Assembly (NCBI GenBank): GCA_018302205.1
Contig: JAGVZZ010000017.1
Span: forward strand, 1-34,479
DNA: 34,479 bases
Direction of reading: 5' to 3'
Origin: Candidatus Woesearchaeota archaeon
Lineage (GTDB): Archaea > Nanobdellota > Nanobdellia > SCGC-AAA011-G17 > GW2011-AR17
The notes below the pieces were generated by a model. The model did not search any database. It was not told the DNA's origin and worked only from the letters and a program-made list of their open reading frames with translations. A program made the position numbers and the translations under genes. Positions within the stretch are counted from its first letter, which is position 1. Each line of letters begins with the position of its first letter. Positions 12,239 to 19,759 of this stretch are shown here, in pieces.

Positions 12239-12333
12239 AAGAGATTTATCAGAATTTTATTTATAATATTTATGGAATTGAAATAATTTTAGTCTTCACA
12301 ATATTTTTAAATCAGGTTTAGGACATTAGAAGA

Positions 12334-13707
12334 ATGATAATTTCAGTAGCAGGTTCGGGTTTTGTGGGATTAGTACACGGTGCAGTCCTTTCAAAACAAG
12401 GTCACAAAGTTATTCTTTTTGATATTAATCAAGATAAAATAAATTCAATAATTAATTTCTGTGAAGGGAAATCAAATGATTTGCCAATATTTGAAGAAGG
12501 ACTTCCAGAGATATTAAGGACATCGTATAAAAATAAATTGATTGAGTTTACAACGGATTCTAAAAGAGCAATTAGGGAATCGACATTTGTATTCATTGCT
12601 GTTGGGACACCACCAGATGCAAATGGGAAAGCAGATTTATCTTATGTTGATTCTGTTGCGCATAAAATTGGAGAAGTGTTGAAAGAAACGCCTTCGTATA
12701 AAATCATTGTAAATAAAAGTACAGTTCCGGTTGGGACAGCTAGACGAGTAAGAAAAATTATTGAACAATATTATCAAGGTGAATTTGAAGTAGCATCAAA
12801 CCCCGAAACGTTAGCTGAGGGTAGAGCTGTAATGGATTCTTTGTATCCAAATAGATTGATTGTGGGTGTAGAATCAGAGAAAGCAAGAAAGCTATTCGAA
12901 GAATTGTATTCATCACTATTTTCACCGGGGCAATCTAGAATACATTTCATGGCTCCAGAGAGTTCAGAACTGACTAAATATGCATGTAATACTTATTTAG
13001 CGTCACAAGTTGCATTGACAAATGTTTTTGCGAATCTGGCTAAAAAGGCTGGTGCAAATTGGAGGGAGATGATCCCTGCGGTTCTAGGAGATGAGAGGAT
13101 TGGTAGATTTGTTCACCCTGGTTTAGGATTTGGTGGAAGTTGTTTTATGAAGGATGTATCACAATTGTATAACACTATCAAAGAGATTGGTGGATCAGAA
13201 CAGGATTTTCAATTATTAAAGCAAGTTCTAGAACAAAATGAGAATCAAAAGATGCAATTGAATATTGTCCTGGATAGAATTTATCCTGAATTGAATGGTA
13301 AGAAAATTGCTGTATGGGGATTAGCATTCAAAAAAGATACCAATGATATTAGAGAAGCTGCTTCATTAAAAGTCATTCCAGATTTGTTGAAAAAAGGTGC
13401 AAAAGTAATCGCACATGATCCGCAAGCTTCAGAAGAGTTTATGCATGAAATGAAAAAATTGAATGTGGATACAACGAATTTAATGATAGTTGAGGATATG
13501 TATGAGGCTACTAAAGACTCTGAGGCATTATTAATTTTGAATGATTGGAAATTGTATCGGAGGCCAGATTATAACCAGCTTAGGAGTAATTTATCTAAAA
13601 GATTAATCCTAGATGGAAAAGATGTCTTTAATTATGAATCTATAAAAGAACAGAAGGACTTTGAATATCATTGTATCGGTCGGCCATCGGTGAATATTTT
13701 GTTGTAA
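12334..13707 (+). CDS. ugd: UDP-glucose 6-dehydrogenase family (nucleotide-sugar dehydrogenase)
   Basis: N-terminal Rossmann motif AGSGFVG, then VGTPP, KSTVPVGT, NPETLAEGRA, the catalytic-Cys motif GFGGSCFMKD, and GLAFKKDTNDIREA. Confidence 0.88.
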   Translation: MIISVAGSGFVGLVHGAVLSKQGHKVILFDINQDKINSIINFCEGKSNDLPIFEEGLPEILRTSYKNKLIEFTTDSKRAIRESTFVFIAVGTPPDANGKADLSYVDSVAHKIGEVLKETPSYKIIVNKSTVPVGTARRVRKIIEQYYQGEFEVASNPETLAEGRAVMDSLYPNRLIVGVESEKARKLFEELYSSLFSPGQSRIHFMAPESSELTKYACNTYLASQVALTNVFANLAKKAGANWREMIPAVLGDERIGRFVHPGLGFGGSCFMKDVSQLYNTIKEIGGSEQDFQLLKQVLEQNENQKMQLNIVLDRIYPELNGKKIAVWGLAFKKDTNDIREAASLKVIPDLLKKGAKVIAHDPQASEEFMHEMKKLNVDTTNLMIVEDMYEATKDSEALLILNDWKLYRRPDYNQLRSNLSKRLILDGKDVFNYESIKEQKDFEYHCIGRPSVNILL

Positions 13708-13712
13708 AAACC

Positions 13713-13720
13713 TTTATAAA
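13713..13720 (+). promoter_or_regulatory. TATA box for the tRNA-Met gene
   Basis: cctTTTATAAAacc is centred about 30 nt upstream of tRNA position 1. Confidence 0.5.
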
Positions 13721-13746
13721 ACCCAAAATAACTTTTTTTCTTAATT

Positions 13747-13820
13747 GGCACTGTAGTTCAACCTGGTAGAACACTAGTCTCATGAGCTAGTTGTTGGGGG
13801 TTCAAATCCCCCTGGTGCCA
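13747..13820 (+). tRNA. tRNA-Met (anticodon CAT; could alternatively be an Ile2-type CAU tRNA). No encoded CCA.
   Basis: Manual cloverleaf: acceptor GGCACTG/TGGTGCC (two G-T pairs); D arm GTTC-aacctggta-GAAC; anticodon arm CTAGT-ctCATga-GCTAG; variable loop ttgtt; T arm GGGGG-ttcaaat-CCCCC; discriminator A. Total 74 nt. Confidence 0.88.
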
Positions 13821-13832
13821 TTATTAATTTCT
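13797..13832 (+). repeat. att-like repeat copy A (T arm and 3' acceptor strand of tRNA-Met plus 12 nt downstream)
   Basis: ggggttcaaatccccctggtgcca ttattaatttct. This is the reference copy for copies B, C and D. Confidence 0.8.
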
Positions 13833-14041
13833 AAAAATTGTTTTATTTCAGAAATTTTTCTAGGATTAAGAGAAATATGTTCTGAAGAATCTTTGCCTGT
13901 TCTTTTTACAAAAAGTAAAATCCATTCATCATTATTTAATTCTTTCAAAGCAGTGCCTATTTCTTTTTTACCTTCTTTGTATAAAATTAATAGTCAGAAT
14001 GAATTTTTCTTCACAGTTGATTAAATTATATGACAAAATGA

Positions 14042-14093
14042 TTTTACAAGAATTATGTATGCATACGCCATGCTCACACACCTTCTTGTAAAA
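14042..14093. repeat. Nested palindrome / stem-loop in the non-coding part of cassette 1
   Basis: Perfect 11-bp inverted arms ttttacaagaa (14042-14052) and ttcttgtaaaa (14083-14093). They enclose a perfect 10-nt palindrome gtatgcatac (14057-14066). Confidence 0.7.
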
Positions 14094-14152
14094 AAATTTA
14101 GCTTCGATATCAAGTATTTAAATTTTGAAAAATTTAGCAAAAGTTTTTATTC

Positions 14153-14563
14153 TTATAAATTTCTAAGTAATTCTTCAAGGGTATCCTTTACCTTTTTATT
14201 TTGTTTTGCTAAATCTTCTGCTTTTTTAACTCTATAGTCCTTAAGTACTCTTATATATATGCCTGATATAACAACTTCATTCAATTTGTTAACAGGAATG
14301 ACCTTATATTCTTCAAAACATACAATTAAACTATATACAATTGAATCTGATGCATCATCACCAGCAAAAATAGGGCTTCCATATTCTATTCCTCTTCTTA
14401 TTTGAGCAGAAACATTAGGGTTTATAGACGTAAAAATCATACCAGAAGAGCCATTGTTACTAATAAACTCTTCATCATATTTCCAATCTTCAAAAGCAAT
14501 ACTTTCTAGCTTTTTACAAACTATTTCTGCTTGAGATATATCCAACCCATATATTAGTTCCAT
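14153..14563 (-). CDS. Hypothetical protein (cassette 1), divergent from the TrmB-like gene
   Basis: 136-aa ORF. A TATA-like ctatatta lies about 28 nt upstream of the ATG. No recognisable motif. Confidence 0.55.
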   Translation of the reverse strand: MELIYGLDISQAEIVCKKLESIAFEDWKYDEEFISNNGSSGMIFTSINPNVSAQIRRGIEYGSPIFAGDDASDSIVYSLIVCFEEYKVIPVNKLNEVVISGIYIRVLKDYRVKKAEDLAKQNKKVKDTLEELLRNL

Positions 14564-14599
14564 TATAATCGGATGAATAAAGCTAAACTATATTAGAAC

Positions 14600-14621
14600 T
14601 TGTTGTAACTCAGAACAACAA
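14600..14621. promoter_or_regulatory. Candidate operator: inverted repeat TTGTTGT-N8-ACAACAA
   Basis: Perfect 7-bp arms at 14600-14606 and 14615-14621. The site sits between the two divergent TATA-like boxes, directly 5' of the TATA (tttattaatta, 14624-14634) of the TrmB-like gene. Confidence 0.5.
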
Positions 14622-14653
14622 CATTTATTAATTACTTCTTCTTCATAAAAATT

Positions 14654-15373
14654 ATGGAGGAATTGATAAGAAAACTTGAAGAAACAGGATTAAGTGAAAA
14701 AGAATCTATAGTTTATCTAGCTCTTCTCAAAAATGGATCTGTCTTTGGAAGTGAACTAGCAAAAATTTTGGGCATGGATAGAAGTCACACATACAATATT
14801 TTACAAAATTTGATTAACAAAGGCTTAGCCAGCCACATTGTCAAAAACAAAAAGATATTATTCCAAATTACATCTCCAAAAAATTTACTTAATTCAATAC
14901 AACAAAAAGAAAAAATTATTCAATCAATTATTCCCGAATTAGAAGCACTGGAAAAAATAAAATATAAATCTTCAGCAATTAATATACATGAAGGTAAAAC
15001 AGGATTAAGAACAGTTATTAGATTAATATTAGAATCAAGAGCAAAAGATATGTTAGTAATTGGTGCAACAGGAAAAAGTTATGAATTTCTTAAATATGAA
15101 ATGCCCCATATTTCAAAGAAGACAGCATTACTCAAAATAAAAGGAAGATTAATTACAAGTGAAAAGTTAAGAGGGCATGCATTTACAAAACTTCCAAATT
15201 TTACGATAAGATACATTGAAGAATTAACTCCTTCTTCTATATTAATCTTTAATAATAACGTGGCTATTAATGTATTTGAAGAAAAACCTTTTGTAATTCT
15301 AATTGAAAACAAATCTATTGCTGATAGTAATAAGAAATATTTTGAATATTTATGGAAAATAGCAAAGAAATAA
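14654..15373 (+). CDS. TrmB-family transcriptional regulator (cassette 1)
   Basis: The N-terminal wHTH GLSEKESIVYLALLKNGSVFGSELAKILGMDRSHTYNILQNLINKGL is typical of TrmB. It is a 239-aa paralog of 16090..16812. Confidence 0.8.
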   Translation: MEELIRKLEETGLSEKESIVYLALLKNGSVFGSELAKILGMDRSHTYNILQNLINKGLASHIVKNKKILFQITSPKNLLNSIQQKEKIIQSIIPELEALEKIKYKSSAINIHEGKTGLRTVIRLILESRAKDMLVIGATGKSYEFLKYEMPHISKKTALLKIKGRLITSEKLRGHAFTKLPNFTIRYIEELTPSSILIFNNNVAINVFEEKPFVILIENKSIADSNKKYFEYLWKIAKK

Positions 15374-15532
15374 TCAATAAATCAAAAACAAAACCTACAT
15401 ACTTTGTCTTTAATTCTACAAACAAAATAACTGAGCCTACCCTTATAAAACAATATAAAATACTAAAGAGAACTTTGCATAATTCATAAAGAGTAAAAAC
15501 TTTTAACACTTCAGCTTTGCTGAGGTAAAATA

Positions 15533-15631
15533 ATGATAACTTCTTTAAAACAATATGGTGTTAAACTAGCATATGAAAAATTAGATCGAATAGGAGATAA
15601 ATTAGAGCCTTTTCAAAAATTAATTGATTGA
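15533..15631 (+). pseudogene. IS5-family transposase N-terminal remnant
   Basis: MITSLKQYGVKLAYEKLDRIGDKLEPFQKLID* resembles the d.L..l...IDW segment of IS5-type transposases. TGA stands where the conserved Trp codon would be. Only about 16 further codons follow before the next stop. Confidence 0.3.
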
Positions 15632-15726
15632 ACAAGAAATAATTATACTATTATTAAGAGTCCTAAAAGAAGACGTATTTAATGATGAAAAAAACACAAA
15701 ACAAAGGTAAAGATGCAATTATTAAT

Positions 15727-15764
15727 GGGGTTCAAATCCCCCTGGTGCCATACTATTAACTTCT
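15727..15764 (+). repeat. att-like repeat copy B
   Basis: ggggttcaaatccccctggtgcca is identical to the 24 nt of copy A that lie inside the tRNA. The tail tactattaacttct differs from copy A by a 2-nt insertion and one substitution. Confidence 0.8.
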
Positions 15765-16013
15765 GTTTAATAAATAGCAAAGGCCAGCAAATAATGTAGA
15801 ATATTCTGCAGTTTGTACTAAAGCACAAGCCATTAAATAAGTATTAGATGGTCTGAGGCTTAAATTTTCAAGTAATCTTCTATATCGATCCATTTCAATA
15901 ATAGTATTATCATCATGAGAGTGATTTCTTCTCCAGGCTATTGCTTCTTGGATTGTAGTGTCAATTGCTTTTCTTAATTCATTTACCATTTTATTTACCT
16001 CTTTGTTTGGCAT
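15756..16013 (-). CDS. Hypothetical small protein (cassette 2), divergent from the TrmB-like gene
   Basis: 85-aa ORF with a hydrophobic C-terminus. Its stop codon lies inside the tail of repeat B. The start is uncertain (M1 at 16013 or M9 at 15989). Confidence 0.45.
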   Translation of the reverse strand: MPNKEVNKMVNELRKAIDTTIQEAIAWRRNHSHDDNTIIEMDRYRRLLENLSLRPSNTYLMACALVQTAEYSTLFAGLCYLLNRS

Positions 16014-16035
16014 TCAAATAAGCTATATAAATGTA

Positions 16036-16058
16036 TGTTGTTGGAATTAACCACAACA
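16036..16058. promoter_or_regulatory. Candidate operator: imperfect inverted repeat TGTTGTTGG-N6-CCACAACA
   Basis: It has the same GTTGT...ACAAC half-sites as 14600-14621. It again lies directly 5' of the TATA (ttataaa, 16060-16066), which is 27 nt upstream of the TrmB-like ATG. Confidence 0.4.
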
Positions 16059-16089
16059 ATTATAAACTCAAAGAGATTAATAAATAGCT

Positions 16090-16812
16090 ATGAAAGCCTC
16101 AATGTTAGTAGAATTTGGATTAAGTGAAAATCAAGCTAGGGTTTATTTAGAAATTATTCAATCCCCTGGAAGATCTGGGAGCAATATTTCAAAATCTTTA
16201 AGCATAGATCGTTCATTTGTATATGATATAATTAATTCTTTAATCAATAAGGGATTAGTCAGCTATGTTGTTAATGGCAAAATAAAAGTATTTTATCCTT
16301 CAGATCCCGAAAATTTAATTAAAGAAATAGATGAAAAGAAAATTAAAGCTTTAAATCTAATAGAAGAAATAAAAAAACTGCAAGAAAAAAATAAATCTGA
16401 AAATGAGGTTAAAGTTTATGAAGGAAAAGCTGGATTAAAGGCTTATGTAAGAGAATTCTTGGATTGTGATAATTTCTATACTCTTGGTGGAGGAGGAACA
16501 TTAAATATACTAGAAGTTTTAAAATATGATTATCCTAATTATATTAAAGAATTTGAACAAAAAAAAATTAAAGGCTCTTTGATTACATCAGAAAAAAATA
16601 AAAAAATTATGGGCTCAATATACCCAAAATCTTCGGTTAAAATAAGAAATCTAGAACATCTAGATAGTAGTGTTAGTTTTTCTATTTTTAATAATAAATT
16701 AGCCATCTATTCTGCCGAAGAAAAACCTTTTGTTTTAATAATAAATAATAAAGAGATTAGTTCATCTTTAAAAAATTATTTTGATCACCTTTGGAAGCAA
16801 GCTAAAAAATGA
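16090..16812 (+). CDS. TrmB-family transcriptional regulator (cassette 2)
   Basis: wHTH GLSENQARVYLEIIQSPGRSGSNISKSLSIDRSFVYDIINSLINKGL. The C-terminus EEKPFVLIINNKEISSSLKNYFDHLWKQAKK is collinear with EEKPFVILIENKSIADSNKKYFEYLWKIAKK in 14654..15373. Confidence 0.8.
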   Translation: MKASMLVEFGLSENQARVYLEIIQSPGRSGSNISKSLSIDRSFVYDIINSLINKGLVSYVVNGKIKVFYPSDPENLIKEIDEKKIKALNLIEEIKKLQEKNKSENEVKVYEGKAGLKAYVREFLDCDNFYTLGGGGTLNILEVLKYDYPNYIKEFEQKKIKGSLITSEKNKKIMGSIYPKSSVKIRNLEHLDSSVSFSIFNNKLAIYSAEEKPFVLIINNKEISSSLKNYFDHLWKQAKK

Positions 16813-16837
16813 AAGCAATAAAGACAAAAGCACCGCA

Positions 16838-16874
16838 GGTGTTCCAAATCCCCCTGGTGCCATTATTAACTTCT
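16838..16874 (+). repeat. att-like repeat copy C
   Basis: ggtgttccaaatccccctggtgcca ttattaacttct. There is a one-base insertion in the T-loop part and the T-stem 5' strand is degraded. Confidence 0.75.
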
Positions 16875-16955
16875 AATAAATTTATAATTTAAATAAATAG
16901 ACTTTCAGAAAAATTTATAAATAAGTTAAACTTAGTTGGTATAAGGAGGACTAAT

Positions 16956-17192
16956 ATGGTACAAGCTTTGGTTCAGATAAATGAAAATACAAATAGGGTA
17001 TTGAATGTAGTGAAAGCAAAATATGGTCTTAGAGATAAAGGTGAAGCTATTCAATTAGTTGTAGAAAAATATATTGAAGAAGAAGATGAGCCTGAATTGA
17101 GACCTGAATTTATTGAAAATATTAAAAAAACTGAAAGTAAAAAAGGCATAACTTTTATATCAATTAAAGAATTAAGAAAGAGGTATGAATGA
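16956..17192 (+). CDS. Small RHH/CopG-like antitoxin candidate (TA pair 2, cassette 3)
   Basis: 78 aa. An AGGAGG lies 7 nt upstream. There is an ATGA stop/start overlap with the toxin ORF. It is a paralog of 163..405 (EPELRPEF). Confidence 0.6.
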   Translation: MVQALVQINENTNRVLNVVKAKYGLRDKGEAIQLVVEKYIEEEDEPELRPEFIENIKKTESKKGITFISIKELRKRYE

Positions 17193-17452
17193 AATATGAA
17201 ATTCACCCAGATTTAGATGAATTATTAACAAAACTTTCTAAAAAAGATAAAAGTTTATTTGAGCAGATTTTAAAGAAAATTGCAGATATTTGCAATTCAG
17301 ATATTAATCATTATAAGAATTTGAAAAAACCATTACAGAATTATAAAAGAGTACATATTGGTCACTTTGTTTTTCTATTCAAAGTAGAAAATGAAACTAT
17401 TATTTTTAGATATTTTGATCATCATGATAAAATTTATCTGATAAATGATTAA
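17189..17452 (+). CDS. RelE/ParE-superfamily toxin (TA pair 2, cassette 3)
   Basis: 87 aa with HYKNLKKPLQNYKRVHIGHFVFLFKVENETIIFRYFDHHDKIY. It is a paralog of 398..670. Confidence 0.65.
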   Translation: MKYEIHPDLDELLTKLSKKDKSLFEQILKKIADICNSDINHYKNLKKPLQNYKRVHIGHFVFLFKVENETIIFRYFDHHDKIYLIND

Positions 17453-17522
17453 TAACTATATTCATTAAATCTATGAATCCTATAAATAATTCTTTGAAGA
17501 AATGTGAAAGTAAGCAGAGATG

Positions 17523-17549
17523 CAAATCTCCTTGGTGCCATTATTAATT
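17523..17549 (+). repeat. att-like repeat copy D (most degraded)
   Basis: caaatctccttggtgccattattaatt matches copy A at 25 of 27 positions. The T-stem 5' part is missing. Confidence 0.7.
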
Positions 17550-18002
17550 CAATAATCCTGTGCACCTCCAGTTAACTTCTGTTGAACCATTTTCATAAAC
17601 AACACAAGCAGGATTGCAGTTATAAGGATTTTCAAAAGGTATTAGATCTATCCAATAGGTTTTTGAATTTTCGTTGTACATTATTGAATCTTCTGAAAGA
17701 GTACCATATTCAGTACAGTTGCTAGCTTCTGCAACTATCATAGCCCAATCTTCAGAACCGGCTTCGTATTCCAAGCATTTTGCATCTTTGGAATAATCCC
17801 CTTCACAACCAATTTCAGTACAACCAGATATTTTACCATCAACAACACCACAAGTATTGCAGCCATCATAGTAAGAGATGCAATTTTCCATAATTTCATT
17901 ATCGCCTAAAGCATCGTCACCATAAGGAATGCCTTTATCTGCTGAGCAGCCAGCTATTATTAAGCATGATACTGCTACTAGGAATATAATTATTTTTTTC
18001 AT
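17544..18002 (-). CDS. Cys-rich lipoprotein
   Basis: MKKIIIFLVAVSCLIIAGCS provides a signal peptide and lipobox. Ten further Cys are present in the mature part. I prefer the start at M8 of the listed ORF (18002). Its stop abuts repeat D. Confidence 0.65.
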   Translation of the reverse strand: MKKIIIFLVAVSCLIIAGCSADKGIPYGDDALGDNEIMENCISYYDGCNTCGVVDGKISGCTEIGCEGDYSKDAKCLEYEAGSEDWAMIVAEASNCTEYGTLSEDSIMYNENSKTYWIDLIPFENPYNCNPACVVYENGSTEVNWRCTGLLN

Positions 18003-18061
18003 AAAATATGCAAAGCATAACAACTATTTAAAGCATTTCAAGACTTCAAATATAATTGAAG

Positions 18062-19759
18062 TTAAGATTTCTTTTTATCTAATAGTAATCTAAGATGAGT
18101 TTGGCGAATCTTTTGCAAACCCTTATGGTCATTATAATATTTATCTAATAGACTTGAAAGGATCTCACCAGATTTTACGTAAGGAACCAAAACATAATCC
18201 GCACCAAGATTGTAAAGATCAATAGCTTCATTTGAAGTTTTTGCGGTTAAGATTATTGTAGGTTTTAGATTCAATTCTTTAATAAATAGGATTAAGGTTT
18301 TATTATCCTCTATACAGGGGATAGTTGAAACAATAAATTTAGCGGATGTAAAATCAACTCTTTTTAAAAGTTCTAAGTTACTAATATCGCCATATAAACA
18401 AGGAGTTTTTTTATGTTTGAGTGTATCAATTATCTCAGGATTATAGTCTACAACAAATAATTTTGTTTTAAGGTGTTTGAATGTTCTTAAGAATGTACCA
18501 CCAACACGATCTGCACCGAATAGGATTAATTCAGGGCGGTCTTTATGTTCATAGCCAAAAAATTTCTTTTTTGTTGAAAGTTTTTCAAATATTGAAAGAA
18601 ACCTATGAATAAAATTGTAAGTTTTTAATTCATATTCAACAATGTAAGAAGTTAAAGCGATACTAATAACACCCAAAAGGATTGTAACTGAGAATAACTC
18701 TGGGGAGATATTATCTACTGAAAGAACAAGGATTAAACCAAATTCACTTATTTGGGCTAAGGAAACAGCCGTAACGAAGGAGTTACGCTTATCATAACCG
18801 AATATACTTAGTAATATCATTACTATTAATGGTTTTAATAAAATCACTAATGCTAAAAATACAAAGAAGGGAGTTATAATTGAGGAAATATTTGTTGAAA
18901 CAATTTGTAGCCCAAGAGAAACAAAAAATATAATTGCAAAAAAATCTTTTAATGAACTCACTTTTGAAATAATATTTAGGTTGTAAGGTAAGTTGGCTAG
19001 TGTGATTCCACCGAAAAAAGCACCAATTGCAATTGAAAAATCAAGTGCATAGGCCAATAAAGAAAATAAGAAACAAAATGCTAATGAGAGTAAAAATAAT
19101 AATTCTGAAGACTTTGCCGCAAATTTGAAGGTAGGGTGGATTAAATATCTATTTGCAATGAATGCGATCACTAGTAAAATTAAAAATTTCAATAAACTAT
19201 ATAGGATGGCTGTAAATGAAAGGGAATCTGAGCCGATAATCAAAGTTAGTGCAAGGATTACTAGGATATCTTGGATGAATAATATCCCTAATAACATTCT
19301 TCCGTGAATAGTACTTAATTCATCTTTGTCTATTATTAATTTTAAAACAATCATAGTACTTGAGAATGCAATAATTAAACCAGCATAGATTGCATTCATA
19401 GTATCAAAACCCATTAATAGTGCAACAAAATACCCCGCTGCAAAGGTTAAGAATACTTGAAGAATACCTGTAATAGCAACAACCCCCCCTAGTGATTTTA
19501 ATTTCTTTAAATCCATCTCTAGTCCAACAATGAAAAGTAAAAAAATTATTCCAATTTCGGAGATACTTTGGATTAAATTTGTATCTTGAATTAATTTTAA
19601 ACCAATAGGACCAATAACTAAACCGGCAATTATGTATGCAGGGATTAGTGGTTGTTTGAATAATCTTGCAATGTATGCAAAGAAGGTTGCAACAATAAGT
19701 ATAACACCTAAGTTAAATAGTAAACTCTGCGGAACAAAACTCAACACGTCTTCGAACAT
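18062..19759 (-). CDS. CPA2-family cation:proton antiporter (Kef-type) with C-terminal RCK/TrkA-N domain
   Basis: 565 aa: a polytopic N-terminal region of about 390 aa, then a Rossmann-like ILFGADRVGG and a TrkA-N-like domain. Confidence 0.8.
   Translation of the reverse strand: MFEDVLSFVPQSLLFNLGVILIVATFFAYIARLFKQPLIPAYIIAGLVIGPIGLKLIQDTNLIQSISEIGIIFLLFIVGLEMDLKKLKSLGGVVAITGILQVFLTFAAGYFVALLMGFDTMNAIYAGLIIAFSSTMIVLKLIIDKDELSTIHGRMLLGILFIQDILVILALTLIIGSDSLSFTAILYSLLKFLILLVIAFIANRYLIHPTFKFAAKSSELLFLLSLAFCFLFSLLAYALDFSIAIGAFFGGITLANLPYNLNIISKVSSLKDFFAIIFFVSLGLQIVSTNISSIITPFFVFLALVILLKPLIVMILLSIFGYDKRNSFVTAVSLAQISEFGLILVLSVDNISPELFSVTILLGVISIALTSYIVEYELKTYNFIHRFLSIFEKLSTKKKFFGYEHKDRPELILFGADRVGGTFLRTFKHLKTKLFVVDYNPEIIDTLKHKKTPCLYGDISNLELLKRVDFTSAKFIVSTIPCIEDNKTLILFIKELNLKPTIILTAKTSNEAIDLYNLGADYVLVPYVKSGEILSSLLDKYYNDHKGLQKIRQTHLRLLLDKKKS

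Follow-up and report, generated by a model that had tools for sequence, protein, structure and literature searches.

The window considered here is a stretch of 34,479 nt from Candidatus Woesearchaeota archaeon (GCA_018302205.1, contig JAGVZZ010000017.1, positions 1–34,479), and its subject is a tRNA-Met(CAT) gene followed by three partial copies of its own 3′ end, which bound three small gene-bearing units of 1.9, 1.1 and 0.68 kb. The features of this array and of its right-hand flank are collected in Table 1, with the attachment-type (att) repeats numbered from the tRNA outwards; loci in other genomes and contigs are referred to by L numbers. ARAGORN finds one tRNA gene in the window (13746–13821), and an Rfam scan of positions 13000–18500 gives no RNA family besides this tRNA-Met; the intact gene reported in a preliminary description of this DNA is confirmed by both programs. 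The same description gave intervals of about 1.9, 1.1 and 0.68 kb, in good agreement with start-to-start spacings of 1930, 1112 and 678 nt. The same-orientation copies that it listed are real, and the position of copy 2 is exact, but copy 3 starts at 16839 rather than 16838, and copy 4 at 17517 rather than 17523.

Several patterns emerge from the repeats. First, the 25-nt core GGGGTTCAAATCCCCCTGGTGCCAT is placed four times on the + strand by a repeat finder, the first time inside the tRNA at 13797, and a TTATTAA(Y)TT-type trailer follows every core copy. A 25-mer pattern spanning core and trailer (T-loop, acceptor strand and first 7 trailer bases) gives 3 matches with up to 3 mismatches, with 0.00 expected from 100 shuffles, and misses copy 2 because of the 2-nt insertion in its trailer. 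Secondly, alignment of the flanks of all copies shows that the shared right side extends about 12 nt beyond the tRNA end (TTATTAAYTTCT), that in copies 3 and 4 the mismatches gather towards the left, on the T-stem 5′ flank of the core, and that weak similarity continues further left into the anticodon-arm region. Thirdly, the cores of copies 1–3 are intact (19–25 nt identical, with the likely crossover region included), and the left arms of the three partial copies are mutually different and degenerate; three different attP donors are therefore implied. This is the signature of attR sites, in which an element-derived (attP) left arm is joined to a displaced native 3′ end. The tRNA-Met is the chromosomal integration target, and its 3′ part, att copy 1, is the attL of the newest unit. 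Two weaker att-like fragments are also present: GATGCAATTATTAAT at 15703–15726, which abuts att copy 2 and resembles copy 4 minus its acceptor part, and AGAGATGCAATTTTCCATAATTTCATTAT at 17874–17902, inside the lipoprotein open reading frame (ORF), with a 22/29 match to copy 4. These may be older scars or chance matches. Halves of a split tRNA were considered and rejected, the tRNA-Met being intact and the fragments beginning at the T-arm and not at the anticodon loop.

Table 1. Coordinates of the tRNA-Met gene, the att copies, the units between them and the right-hand flank
Feature	Position	Strand	Evidence or remark
Intact tRNA-Met(CAT) gene	13747–13820	+	Rfam RF00005, 64.7 bits, E 7.8e-13; ARAGORN; gene found at the equivalent place in L020/L018 and L023
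att copy 1: T-arm, acceptor 3′ strand and trailer TTATTAATTTCT	13797–13835	+	Repeat finder, flank alignment
Unit 1	13836–15726		136-aa ORF divergent from 239-aa TrmB-family regulator; 317 and 353 nt non-coding at the ends
Non-coding left end of unit 1, 317 nt	13836–14152	.	Only short spurious ORFs; no integrase similarity
136-aa ORFan, divergent from regulator 1	14153–14563	-	No Pfam, PHROG or NCBIfam match
Candidate operator of unit 1, palindrome TTGTTGTAACTCAGAACAACAA	14600–14621	.	Between two divergent A/T-rich promoter boxes
TrmB-family winged-helix regulator 1, 239 aa	14654–15373	+	PF01978, E 7.5e-14
Non-coding right end of unit 1, 353 nt	15374–15726	.	Broken short ORFs; last ~20 nt (GATGCAATTATTAAT) att-fragment-like
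att copy 2	15727–15765	+	Core 15727–15751, 25/25 identical; trailer with 2-nt 'AC' insertion
85-aa ORFan, divergent from regulator 2	15756–16013	-	Stop codon within trailer of att copy 2
Candidate operator of unit 2, palindrome TGTTGTTGGAATTAACCACAACAA	16036–16059	.	Upstream-region alignment
TrmB-family regulator 2, 240 aa	16090–16812	+	PF01978, E 1.4e-13; stop codon 26 nt before att copy 3
att copy 3	16839–16875	+	Core 16839–16863, 22/25 identical, mismatches at left
DUF2683 antitoxin-like gene, 78 aa	16956–17192	+	PF10884, E 3.9e-7, 30.7 bits against cutoff 27
RelE/ParE/YafQ-family toxin-like gene, 87 aa	17189–17452	+	TIGR00053 YafQ, E 7.6e-13; PF05016 ParE_toxin, E 2.3e-4; phrog_1213 RelE-like; all below curated cutoffs
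att copy 4, most distal	17517–17552	+	Core 17517–17541, 20/25 identical; trailer overlaps last codons of lipoprotein gene
Cys-rich lipoprotein-like ORF, 159 aa, between array and Kef	17544–18023	-	
Kef-type K+/H+ antiporter gene, conserved right-hand chromosomal anchor	18062–19759	-	82–92% identity to syntenic genes of L023, L018 and L020

The array is poorer in G+C than its surroundings (24–29%, against 30–35% in the flanks), and its first two units share a common plan. Each is a divergent gene pair with a conserved palindromic candidate operator between two A/T boxes, a small ORF being transcribed away from a TrmB-like regulator. The preliminary description had recognized both pairs; the 'IS5-like remnant' that it added to unit 1 finds no Pfam support even at E values up to 10. 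Both regulators carry an N-terminal TrmB winged-helix domain above the PF01978 cutoff and are 41% identical to each other over their full length (E 5e-49); their C-terminal halves matched no sugar-binding-domain model and no solved structure, and no solved structure was found by sequence for regulator 1. The 136-aa and 85-aa partner genes are unrelated to each other, and each matches itself only, among 5.8 billion clusters and 1.84 billion representatives, respectively; homologues against which truncation of either gene at an att junction could be judged were sought and none was found. Orthologues of regulator 1 form about 60 clusters with 58–84% identity in Woese-, Pace- and Nanoarchaeota metagenome bins, and the palindrome TTGTTGTAACTCAGAACAACAA is near-invariant upstream of those in three other genomes and recognizable upstream of regulator 2. 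This palindrome (TTGTTGTAAC-N-GAACAACAA) is likely the operator for both divergent promoters. We note that the form TGTTGTAACTnAGAACAACA is strongly conserved upstream of the TrmB-like regulator orthologues, at 14600–14621 and 16036–16059 in the window and just upstream of position 8001 in L011, L013 and L015, and that the small divergent gene paired with the regulator is a different one in each genome, with no homology among them, such that regulator and operator are conserved and the partner is variable.

Unit 3 lacks a regulator. It consists of the antitoxin-like gene upstream of the toxin-like gene with a 4-nt overlap, the arrangement of a type II toxin–antitoxin system, and the RelE-type pair proposed earlier is supported by PF10884, with a match above its cutoff, and by TIGR00053, with toxin matches below curated cutoffs. 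A related combination is seen in L032 (127–1242), where the closest regulator 1 orthologue (84% identity) is followed by an AbrB/MazE-like antitoxin gene and the start of a RelE-like toxin gene, these families being read from the translated sequence with no profile search. The content of L032 echoes the regulator and toxin–antitoxin content of the array, and no att copy lies between the L032 genes.

No recombinase is encoded in the array, as the preliminary description had stated, and Pfam, tblastn and profile searches extend this to the 34-kb window. In Pfam scans and precomputed gene tables, neither PF00589 nor PF16795 matches any ORF of at least 90 aa in the window, nor any of the shorter array ORFs scanned. 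A tblastn search of the window with the cognate integrase described below (word size 2, E up to 100) gives noise only, and the best match of a profile hidden Markov model of the integrase family to all six-frame peptides of the window, at E 3, is likewise noise. SSV-style int(N) and int(C) reading frames across the att copies were not found, a stop codon closing each frame after a few codons; the sole ORF that crosses a copy is 28 codons long, lies over att copy 2 and is not integrase-like. The read-through frame of the related integrases ends 3–6 codons past copies 1–3 (..NPPGAIINF, then stop) and 13 codons past copy 4.

The same chromosomal site can be followed in other genomes. An identical array is present in at least ten contigs from several samples, all collinear and 99.3–100% identical, and the differences among these same-species contigs are scaffold Ns and one 33-bp in-frame deletion. 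The deletion lies within regulator 2 (16447–16479) in one population variant (contig L004), and may reflect relaxed selection or an assembly artefact. An exact-match scan of JGI metagenomes with the att 23-mer returned four loci, the same 23-mer is absent from IMG/VR, and an att 20-mer scan of GTDB species representatives returned one genome.

In the syntenic relatives the flanks are 86–87% identical to the window in the aspartyl-tRNA synthetase (AspRS) gene and 82–92% in the Kef gene. L020 and L018, at about 77% nucleotide identity, share the genes for the giant Laminin_G protein, AspRS, HIT, cupin and tRNA-Met, with Kef on the other side; their tRNA-Met–Kef interval encodes two 79-aa membrane proteins and one 322-aa Cys-rich protein, and contains no att copy and none of the window's array genes. 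The secreted protein that L020 encodes at the equivalent place shows no similarity to the window's lipoprotein. L022/L023, from a Woesearchaeota metagenome-assembled genome (contig CAYYMN010000001.1), is also syntenic (AspRS 86%, Kef 82%), and to the right of the interval L023 has Kef, Alba, methyltransferase, PfkB, a 281-aa gene and NT5C. Its tRNA-Met–Kef interval contains a gene for a 270-aa tyrosine recombinase and five small genes, together with a TrmB remnant. Homology of the window to the tRNA loci of L020 and L023 stops at about 13836, and the content between tRNA-Met and Kef is wholly different among the three. Because the interval differs in this way among three syntenic genomes, it is a hypervariable hotspot and its content in the window is inserted material; the lipoprotein-like ORF, for which neither L020 nor L023 has an equivalent at this place, is therefore also part of the variable interval. 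The presence/absence variation of cassettes for which the preliminary description proposed to look is thus seen in part: the interval differs in L020/L018 and L023, but all same-species contigs carry the identical array.

Three further observations concern this and similar sites. A UDP-glucose/GDP-mannose dehydrogenase gene (12283–13690) of relatively high G+C (0.33–0.355) is situated between the cupin gene and the tRNA-Met in the window and is absent from this place in L020/L018, where cupin abuts the tRNA; the upstream side of the tRNA is therefore variable too. In L019, a contig of 1,283 nt from a related organism, positions 291–1236 hold a tRNA-Met, a single 262-aa ORF and, about 870 nt downstream, an incomplete repeat of the tRNA 3′ end (22/25); the ORF has no Pfam or PHROG match and is non-integrase. 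In L021 (796–2001), a tRNA-Lys shares its T-arm/acceptor 3′ sequence with the tRNA-Met of the window and has a second copy of its 3′ end 136 nt downstream, upon which a TrmB-like gene (about 30–34% identity to the window regulators) converges.

A site-specific recombinase for this att site exists in the P0121 family, to judge from its position. The L023 integrase, P0121 (270 aa; PF00589, E 4e-18), begins 7 nt after the 3′ end of the same tRNA-Met, and its first codons, ATG TCT AAG (ATGTCTAAG), can be aligned to TTCTAA/GTCTAA in the att trailers of the window and L020. The family (P0121–P0130) is small, with ten clusters at 41–100% identity, and its source environments appear to be non-geothermal. 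Four members (P0121, P0122, P0126 and P0130) match PF00589 at E 1e-17 to 1e-21, and PF16795 at E 0.0008–0.06, which is below cutoff. The family loci are L023 10001–10813, L024 9758–10576 and 20522–20561, and L030 4717–5628. In L024 the integrase gene is directly 3′ of a tRNA-Gln, and the tRNA 3′ end is repeated 10.8 kb downstream, identical over 19 nt; in L028 it is directly 3′ of a tRNA-Phe, within an element that also carries a TrmB-family gene and a D5_N/DUF5906 primase-helicase. The L030 contig of 7,356 nt has no tRNA gene and encodes a Prim-Pol, a DUF5906 helicase, an HNH protein and the integrase; a 30-nt terminal overlap indicates that it is circular. Its 303-aa integrase ORF contains a tRNA-3′-end-like attP, TTCAAATCTGGGCGGTGCCA. 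The integrated integrase gene of L024 is without an ATG over about 70 codons downstream of the tRNA; once the attR-left arm is joined to the attL-right arm, an integrase ORF that begins with ATG is regained across the core (MMKGIKNKNKTSVAVMNPGGAIPITKVRL...). The N-terminal piece split off by integration comprises the codons upstream of the core, about 15 of them in L024 and roughly 35 in L030. Because attP is inside the 5′ part of the integrase ORF in both L024 and L030, integration strips off the promoter and start codon. The P0121 family therefore behaves like archaeal 'suicidal' integrases that trap their element, with an architecture that falls outside the SSV/PF16795 family.

Short remnants link these integrase-bearing elements to the window's units. 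When the array was compared by tblastx with all loci collected, C-terminal remnants of TrmB genes were identified at two sites. In the L023 island, a remnant at 13535–13606 (ending in NYFNLIWKQVKK and a stop) forms the right end, and a degenerate att-like sequence lies about 20 nt beyond it; in the L024 element, a remnant at 14661–14846 precedes another att-like fragment, both att-like sequences being judged by eye, with no tool. The remnants thus stand about 10–25 nt before a decayed att-like sequence, just as regulator 2 stands 26 nt before att copy 3. At the other end, comparison with L023 shows that the non-coding left part of unit 1 has the position of the integrase gene in related integrase-bearing islands. 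The element family appears from these alignments to have the layout att, integrase, cargo, variable gene divergent from TrmB, att, and on this reading units 1 and 2 would be the right-hand ends of two related elements minus the integrase and the middle, with unit 3 a surviving addiction module. The stretch from integrase to TrmB in L013 has no convincing flanking repeats, and regulator 1 has no relatives in IMG/VR.

The preferred explanation, to which we assign a probability of roughly 60%, is that plasmid-like elements were inserted one after another at a tRNA-Met hotspot and captured there, and that their integrase-less remnants form the tandem stack now seen. The tRNA-Met–Kef interval would be a hotspot for small plasmid-like elements of Woesearchaeota-type (DPANN) archaea, entered by tyrosine-recombinase recombination of the element's attP with the 3′ portion of the tRNA gene. 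Three elements, related to one another but not the same, would have inserted in succession, every insertion rebuilding the tRNA 3′ end from the incoming attP and displacing the earlier 3′ end downstream as a partial copy, to give the order tRNA/att1, unit 1, att2, unit 2, att3, unit 3, att4. With an integrase gene that starts within or directly after the att core, integration would cut off its promoter and start codon and leave the element 'captured', with the TrmB-family regulator and divergent variable gene at its far end, beside attR. The silenced integrase and replication genes would later have been deleted in the compact genome. Each left boundary would once have served as the 3′ end of a working, essential tRNA; the only survivable deletions would then have been those that stopped just downstream, and we propose that this constraint accounts for the clean att boundaries and for units that start near the att trailer. 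The survivors would be those that resist loss or are useful, namely two autoregulated regulator modules and a toxin–antitoxin addiction pair. The foreign character of the array is evident in its low G+C, its toxin–antitoxin pair and the ORFan status of both divergent partner genes. An eroded stack of successive integrations was the less favored of two readings in the preliminary description, and it fits the three left arms, the variable interval, the integrase that follows the same tRNA-Met in L023 and the right end that the L023 island shares in arrangement with unit 2.

A number of findings weigh against this explanation. Integrase remnants inside each interval, which the preliminary description had named as something to look for, were not found in any of the three units by Pfam, tblastn or profile searches, so that we infer their former possession of an integrase by comparison only; the word 'decayed' would thus describe what is seen between genomes and not integrase remnants in the window. 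That the missing integrase was of the P0121 type, and the insertion order and manner of deletion given above, are to be taken in the same conditional sense. No P0121-family member could be tied to the window's own organism, and an alignment of the integrase family has no relatives in IMG/VR. Orthologues of regulator 1 in L011, L013, L015, L031 and L032 have no flanking att copies, and several are among ordinary chromosomal genes; the regulator is therefore not exclusively element-borne. Units 2 and 3 start almost directly after the att trailer, and three independent random deletions ending so near att would be improbable without the proposed tRNA-integrity constraint. The single non-integrase gene between tRNA-Met and an att copy in L019 is likewise less easily accommodated. 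As to ongoing gain and loss, none was seen within the species, nor any excision, circular or alternative junction, among the at least ten contigs.

Some of these points leave room for a second explanation, a weak form of the platform serviced in trans that the preliminary description raised. The units would then be integrase-less but still mobile mini-elements with functional att sites, mobilizable in cis or in trans like bacterial cis-mobilizable elements (CIMEs) or satellites; a P0121-type integrase from an incoming plasmid would bring about their insertion, excision or co-excision, and the array would be a dynamic store of such cargo. We regard this as unlikely, though deserving of attention. 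Unit boundaries are tight, and the intact cores of copies 1–3 mean that an incoming integrase could still recombine them (accretion, cis-mobilization), yet the lack of circular or alternative junctions in contigs from several samples counts against such activity. Similarly, the module of regulator plus variable gene occurs at many unrelated loci, and the 69% identity of regulator 1 to its L011 orthologue, compared with about 40% for Kef, suggests horizontal spread; however, the absence of att copies around the orthologues elsewhere does not favor spread as att-bounded units, no unit was found elsewhere between att sites, and the 136-aa and 85-aa genes occur nowhere else. The L019 unit, with its one gene within 0.87 kb, is similar to those of the window, L024 seemingly holds an integrase-less second unit behind its TrmB remnant, and integrase-less att-bounded islands have been read in this manner in Dehalococcoides (PMC3146451). 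The window's units are nevertheless without replication or transfer functions, and no helper was identified in this organism. We can speculate further that the units represent an archaeal class of integrase-less mini-elements, each an att site with a regulator/cargo module or a toxin–antitoxin pair, that is shuttled into and out of tRNA 3′ ends by the P0121-type 'self-splitting' integrase of small Woesearchaeota plasmids, with the tRNA-Met locus as a re-usable cassette store; a resident helper plasmid with the attP CAAATCCCCCTGGTGCCATTATTAA would lend this plausibility, but it is a doubtful proposition.

Two other explanations address the layout of the array. Units 1 and 2 are alike in layout and have paralogous regulators, as would be expected if a segment of small ORF, TrmB gene and tRNA-Met had been duplicated locally in tandem, or spread by gene conversion, and the extra tRNAs had decayed to 3′ fragments; moreover, the orthologous regulator of L011 is 60 nt upstream of a complete tRNA-Asp, and that of L031 is about 1.2 kb from another tRNA-Met, near S17e-Alba. 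The regulators are only 41% identical and their partners are unrelated, however, yet the att cores are 88–100% identical, and the repeats must therefore be far younger, or far more constrained, than the units. Together with the absence of a regulator from unit 3, fragments that all start at the T-arm with element-type left arms like att sites, and syntenic relatives that either lack the segment or have an integrase there instead, this makes duplication very improbable. We give least credence to a true integron-like platform, the reading favored in the preliminary description, in which a recombinase encoded elsewhere captures single cassettes at the tRNA 3′ end and the platform expresses them. 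The resemblance is one of superficial layout, in that kb-sized units are each closed by a repeat and the array lacks an integrase. Neither an integrase nor an attI-like site lies beside the array or elsewhere in the 34 kb. The repeats are ordinary tRNA-derived att sequences whose only hairpin is the inherited T-arm and which fold no better than shuffled sequences (z -2.1 to +0.4), unlike attC sites, which are imperfect palindromes of variable sequence with a single-strand fold. Units 1 and 2 are not promoterless co-oriented ORFs but divergent pairs of genes under promoters and a candidate operator of their own, and an ordinary element-borne integrase uses the same site in the syntenic L023. 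The further possibility raised in that description, that no recombinase anywhere recognizes the site, also seems not to apply, given the P0121 family.

The array is thus most likely a known kind of genome scar and not a new integron-like system, and in itself it leaves current understanding unchanged. If a decayed stack is the correct explanation, it illustrates that even very small and streamlined DPANN archaeal genomes keep a tRNA-linked integration hotspot, in which plasmid-like elements are captured and then pared to regulators and addiction modules; genomic islands of bacteria and of better-studied archaea arise through the same process. If instead the units are mobile mini-elements, the tRNA-Met locus would be a functional analogue in DPANN archaea of CIME accretion or, loosely, of an integron. 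A by-product of the comparison is a small, previously unnamed family of tyrosine recombinases of Woesearchaeota plasmids that target tRNA 3′ ends, and the overlap of attP with the start of the integrase gene offers a point of entry to the mobile elements and gene flow of a lineage for which almost no such elements have been characterized.

Among known systems, integrons are similar in outward look only, with several small units each ending in a repeat. The window has neither a platform IntI-type integrase nor attI, its repeats are not attC-type folded sites, and its units are not promoterless or co-oriented, units 1 and 2 having their own regulator and promoters. A closer parallel is the SSV-type 'gene capture' in which attP is inside int, so that the gene is split on integration and the element is trapped (She et al. 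2001, as cited in PMC7253208; reviewed in PMC8371274); trapping by suicidal integrases is discussed in PMC7253208. The att core is in the 5′ part of the integrase ORF in the related loci L024 and L030, as in that system, and in both cases trapped elements decay in place at tRNA genes, with successive integrations at one tRNA. The SSV-family catalytic domain is Pfam PF16795 (PMC8371274), whereas the integrases here are of PF00589, and the N-terminal piece that is separated is short. There are no int(N) or int(C) stumps in the window, while L023 and L024 keep the int(C)-equivalent beside the tRNA. The SSV-type family was described from hyperthermophiles, and the host contigs here are apparently non-geothermal.

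Loss of the integrase after integration, as well as tandem integration, is known in archaea (PMC8371274, PMC6563490). The integrated mobile genetic elements of Thaumarchaeota (PMC6563490) are also tyrosine-recombinase elements at tRNA genes with re-use of the site into arrays, and many are small and cryptic, with ORFans, regulators and toxin–antitoxin or defense genes dominating; they were detected via their integrase, whereas the window holds integrase-less remnants only. The nearest layout is that of the CIME and accretion arrays of bacteria, examples of which are the ICESt1-related elements of Streptococcus thermophilus (Pavlovic et al. 2004, as cited in PMC3146451) and the integrase-less tandem islands of Dehalococcoides, which are bounded by ssrA 3′ repeats and for which accretion and cis-mobilization were proposed (PMC3146451). 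The host here is a DPANN archaeon and not a bacterium, the units are much smaller (0.7–1.9 kb) and all three lack an integrase, and the Dehalococcoides islands use a serine recombinase whereas the family here is of tyrosine recombinases. The likeness is one of sequence layout, mobilization of the window's units not being seen in the collinear contigs, and the absence of integrases accords with it, CIMEs lacking an integrase by definition. In both, several direct repeats of the 3′ end of an intact RNA gene follow that gene in a common orientation, every repeat closes a unit of accessory genes, some units have no integration module, the region is hypervariable between related genomes, and the integrase, if present, is located beside attL.

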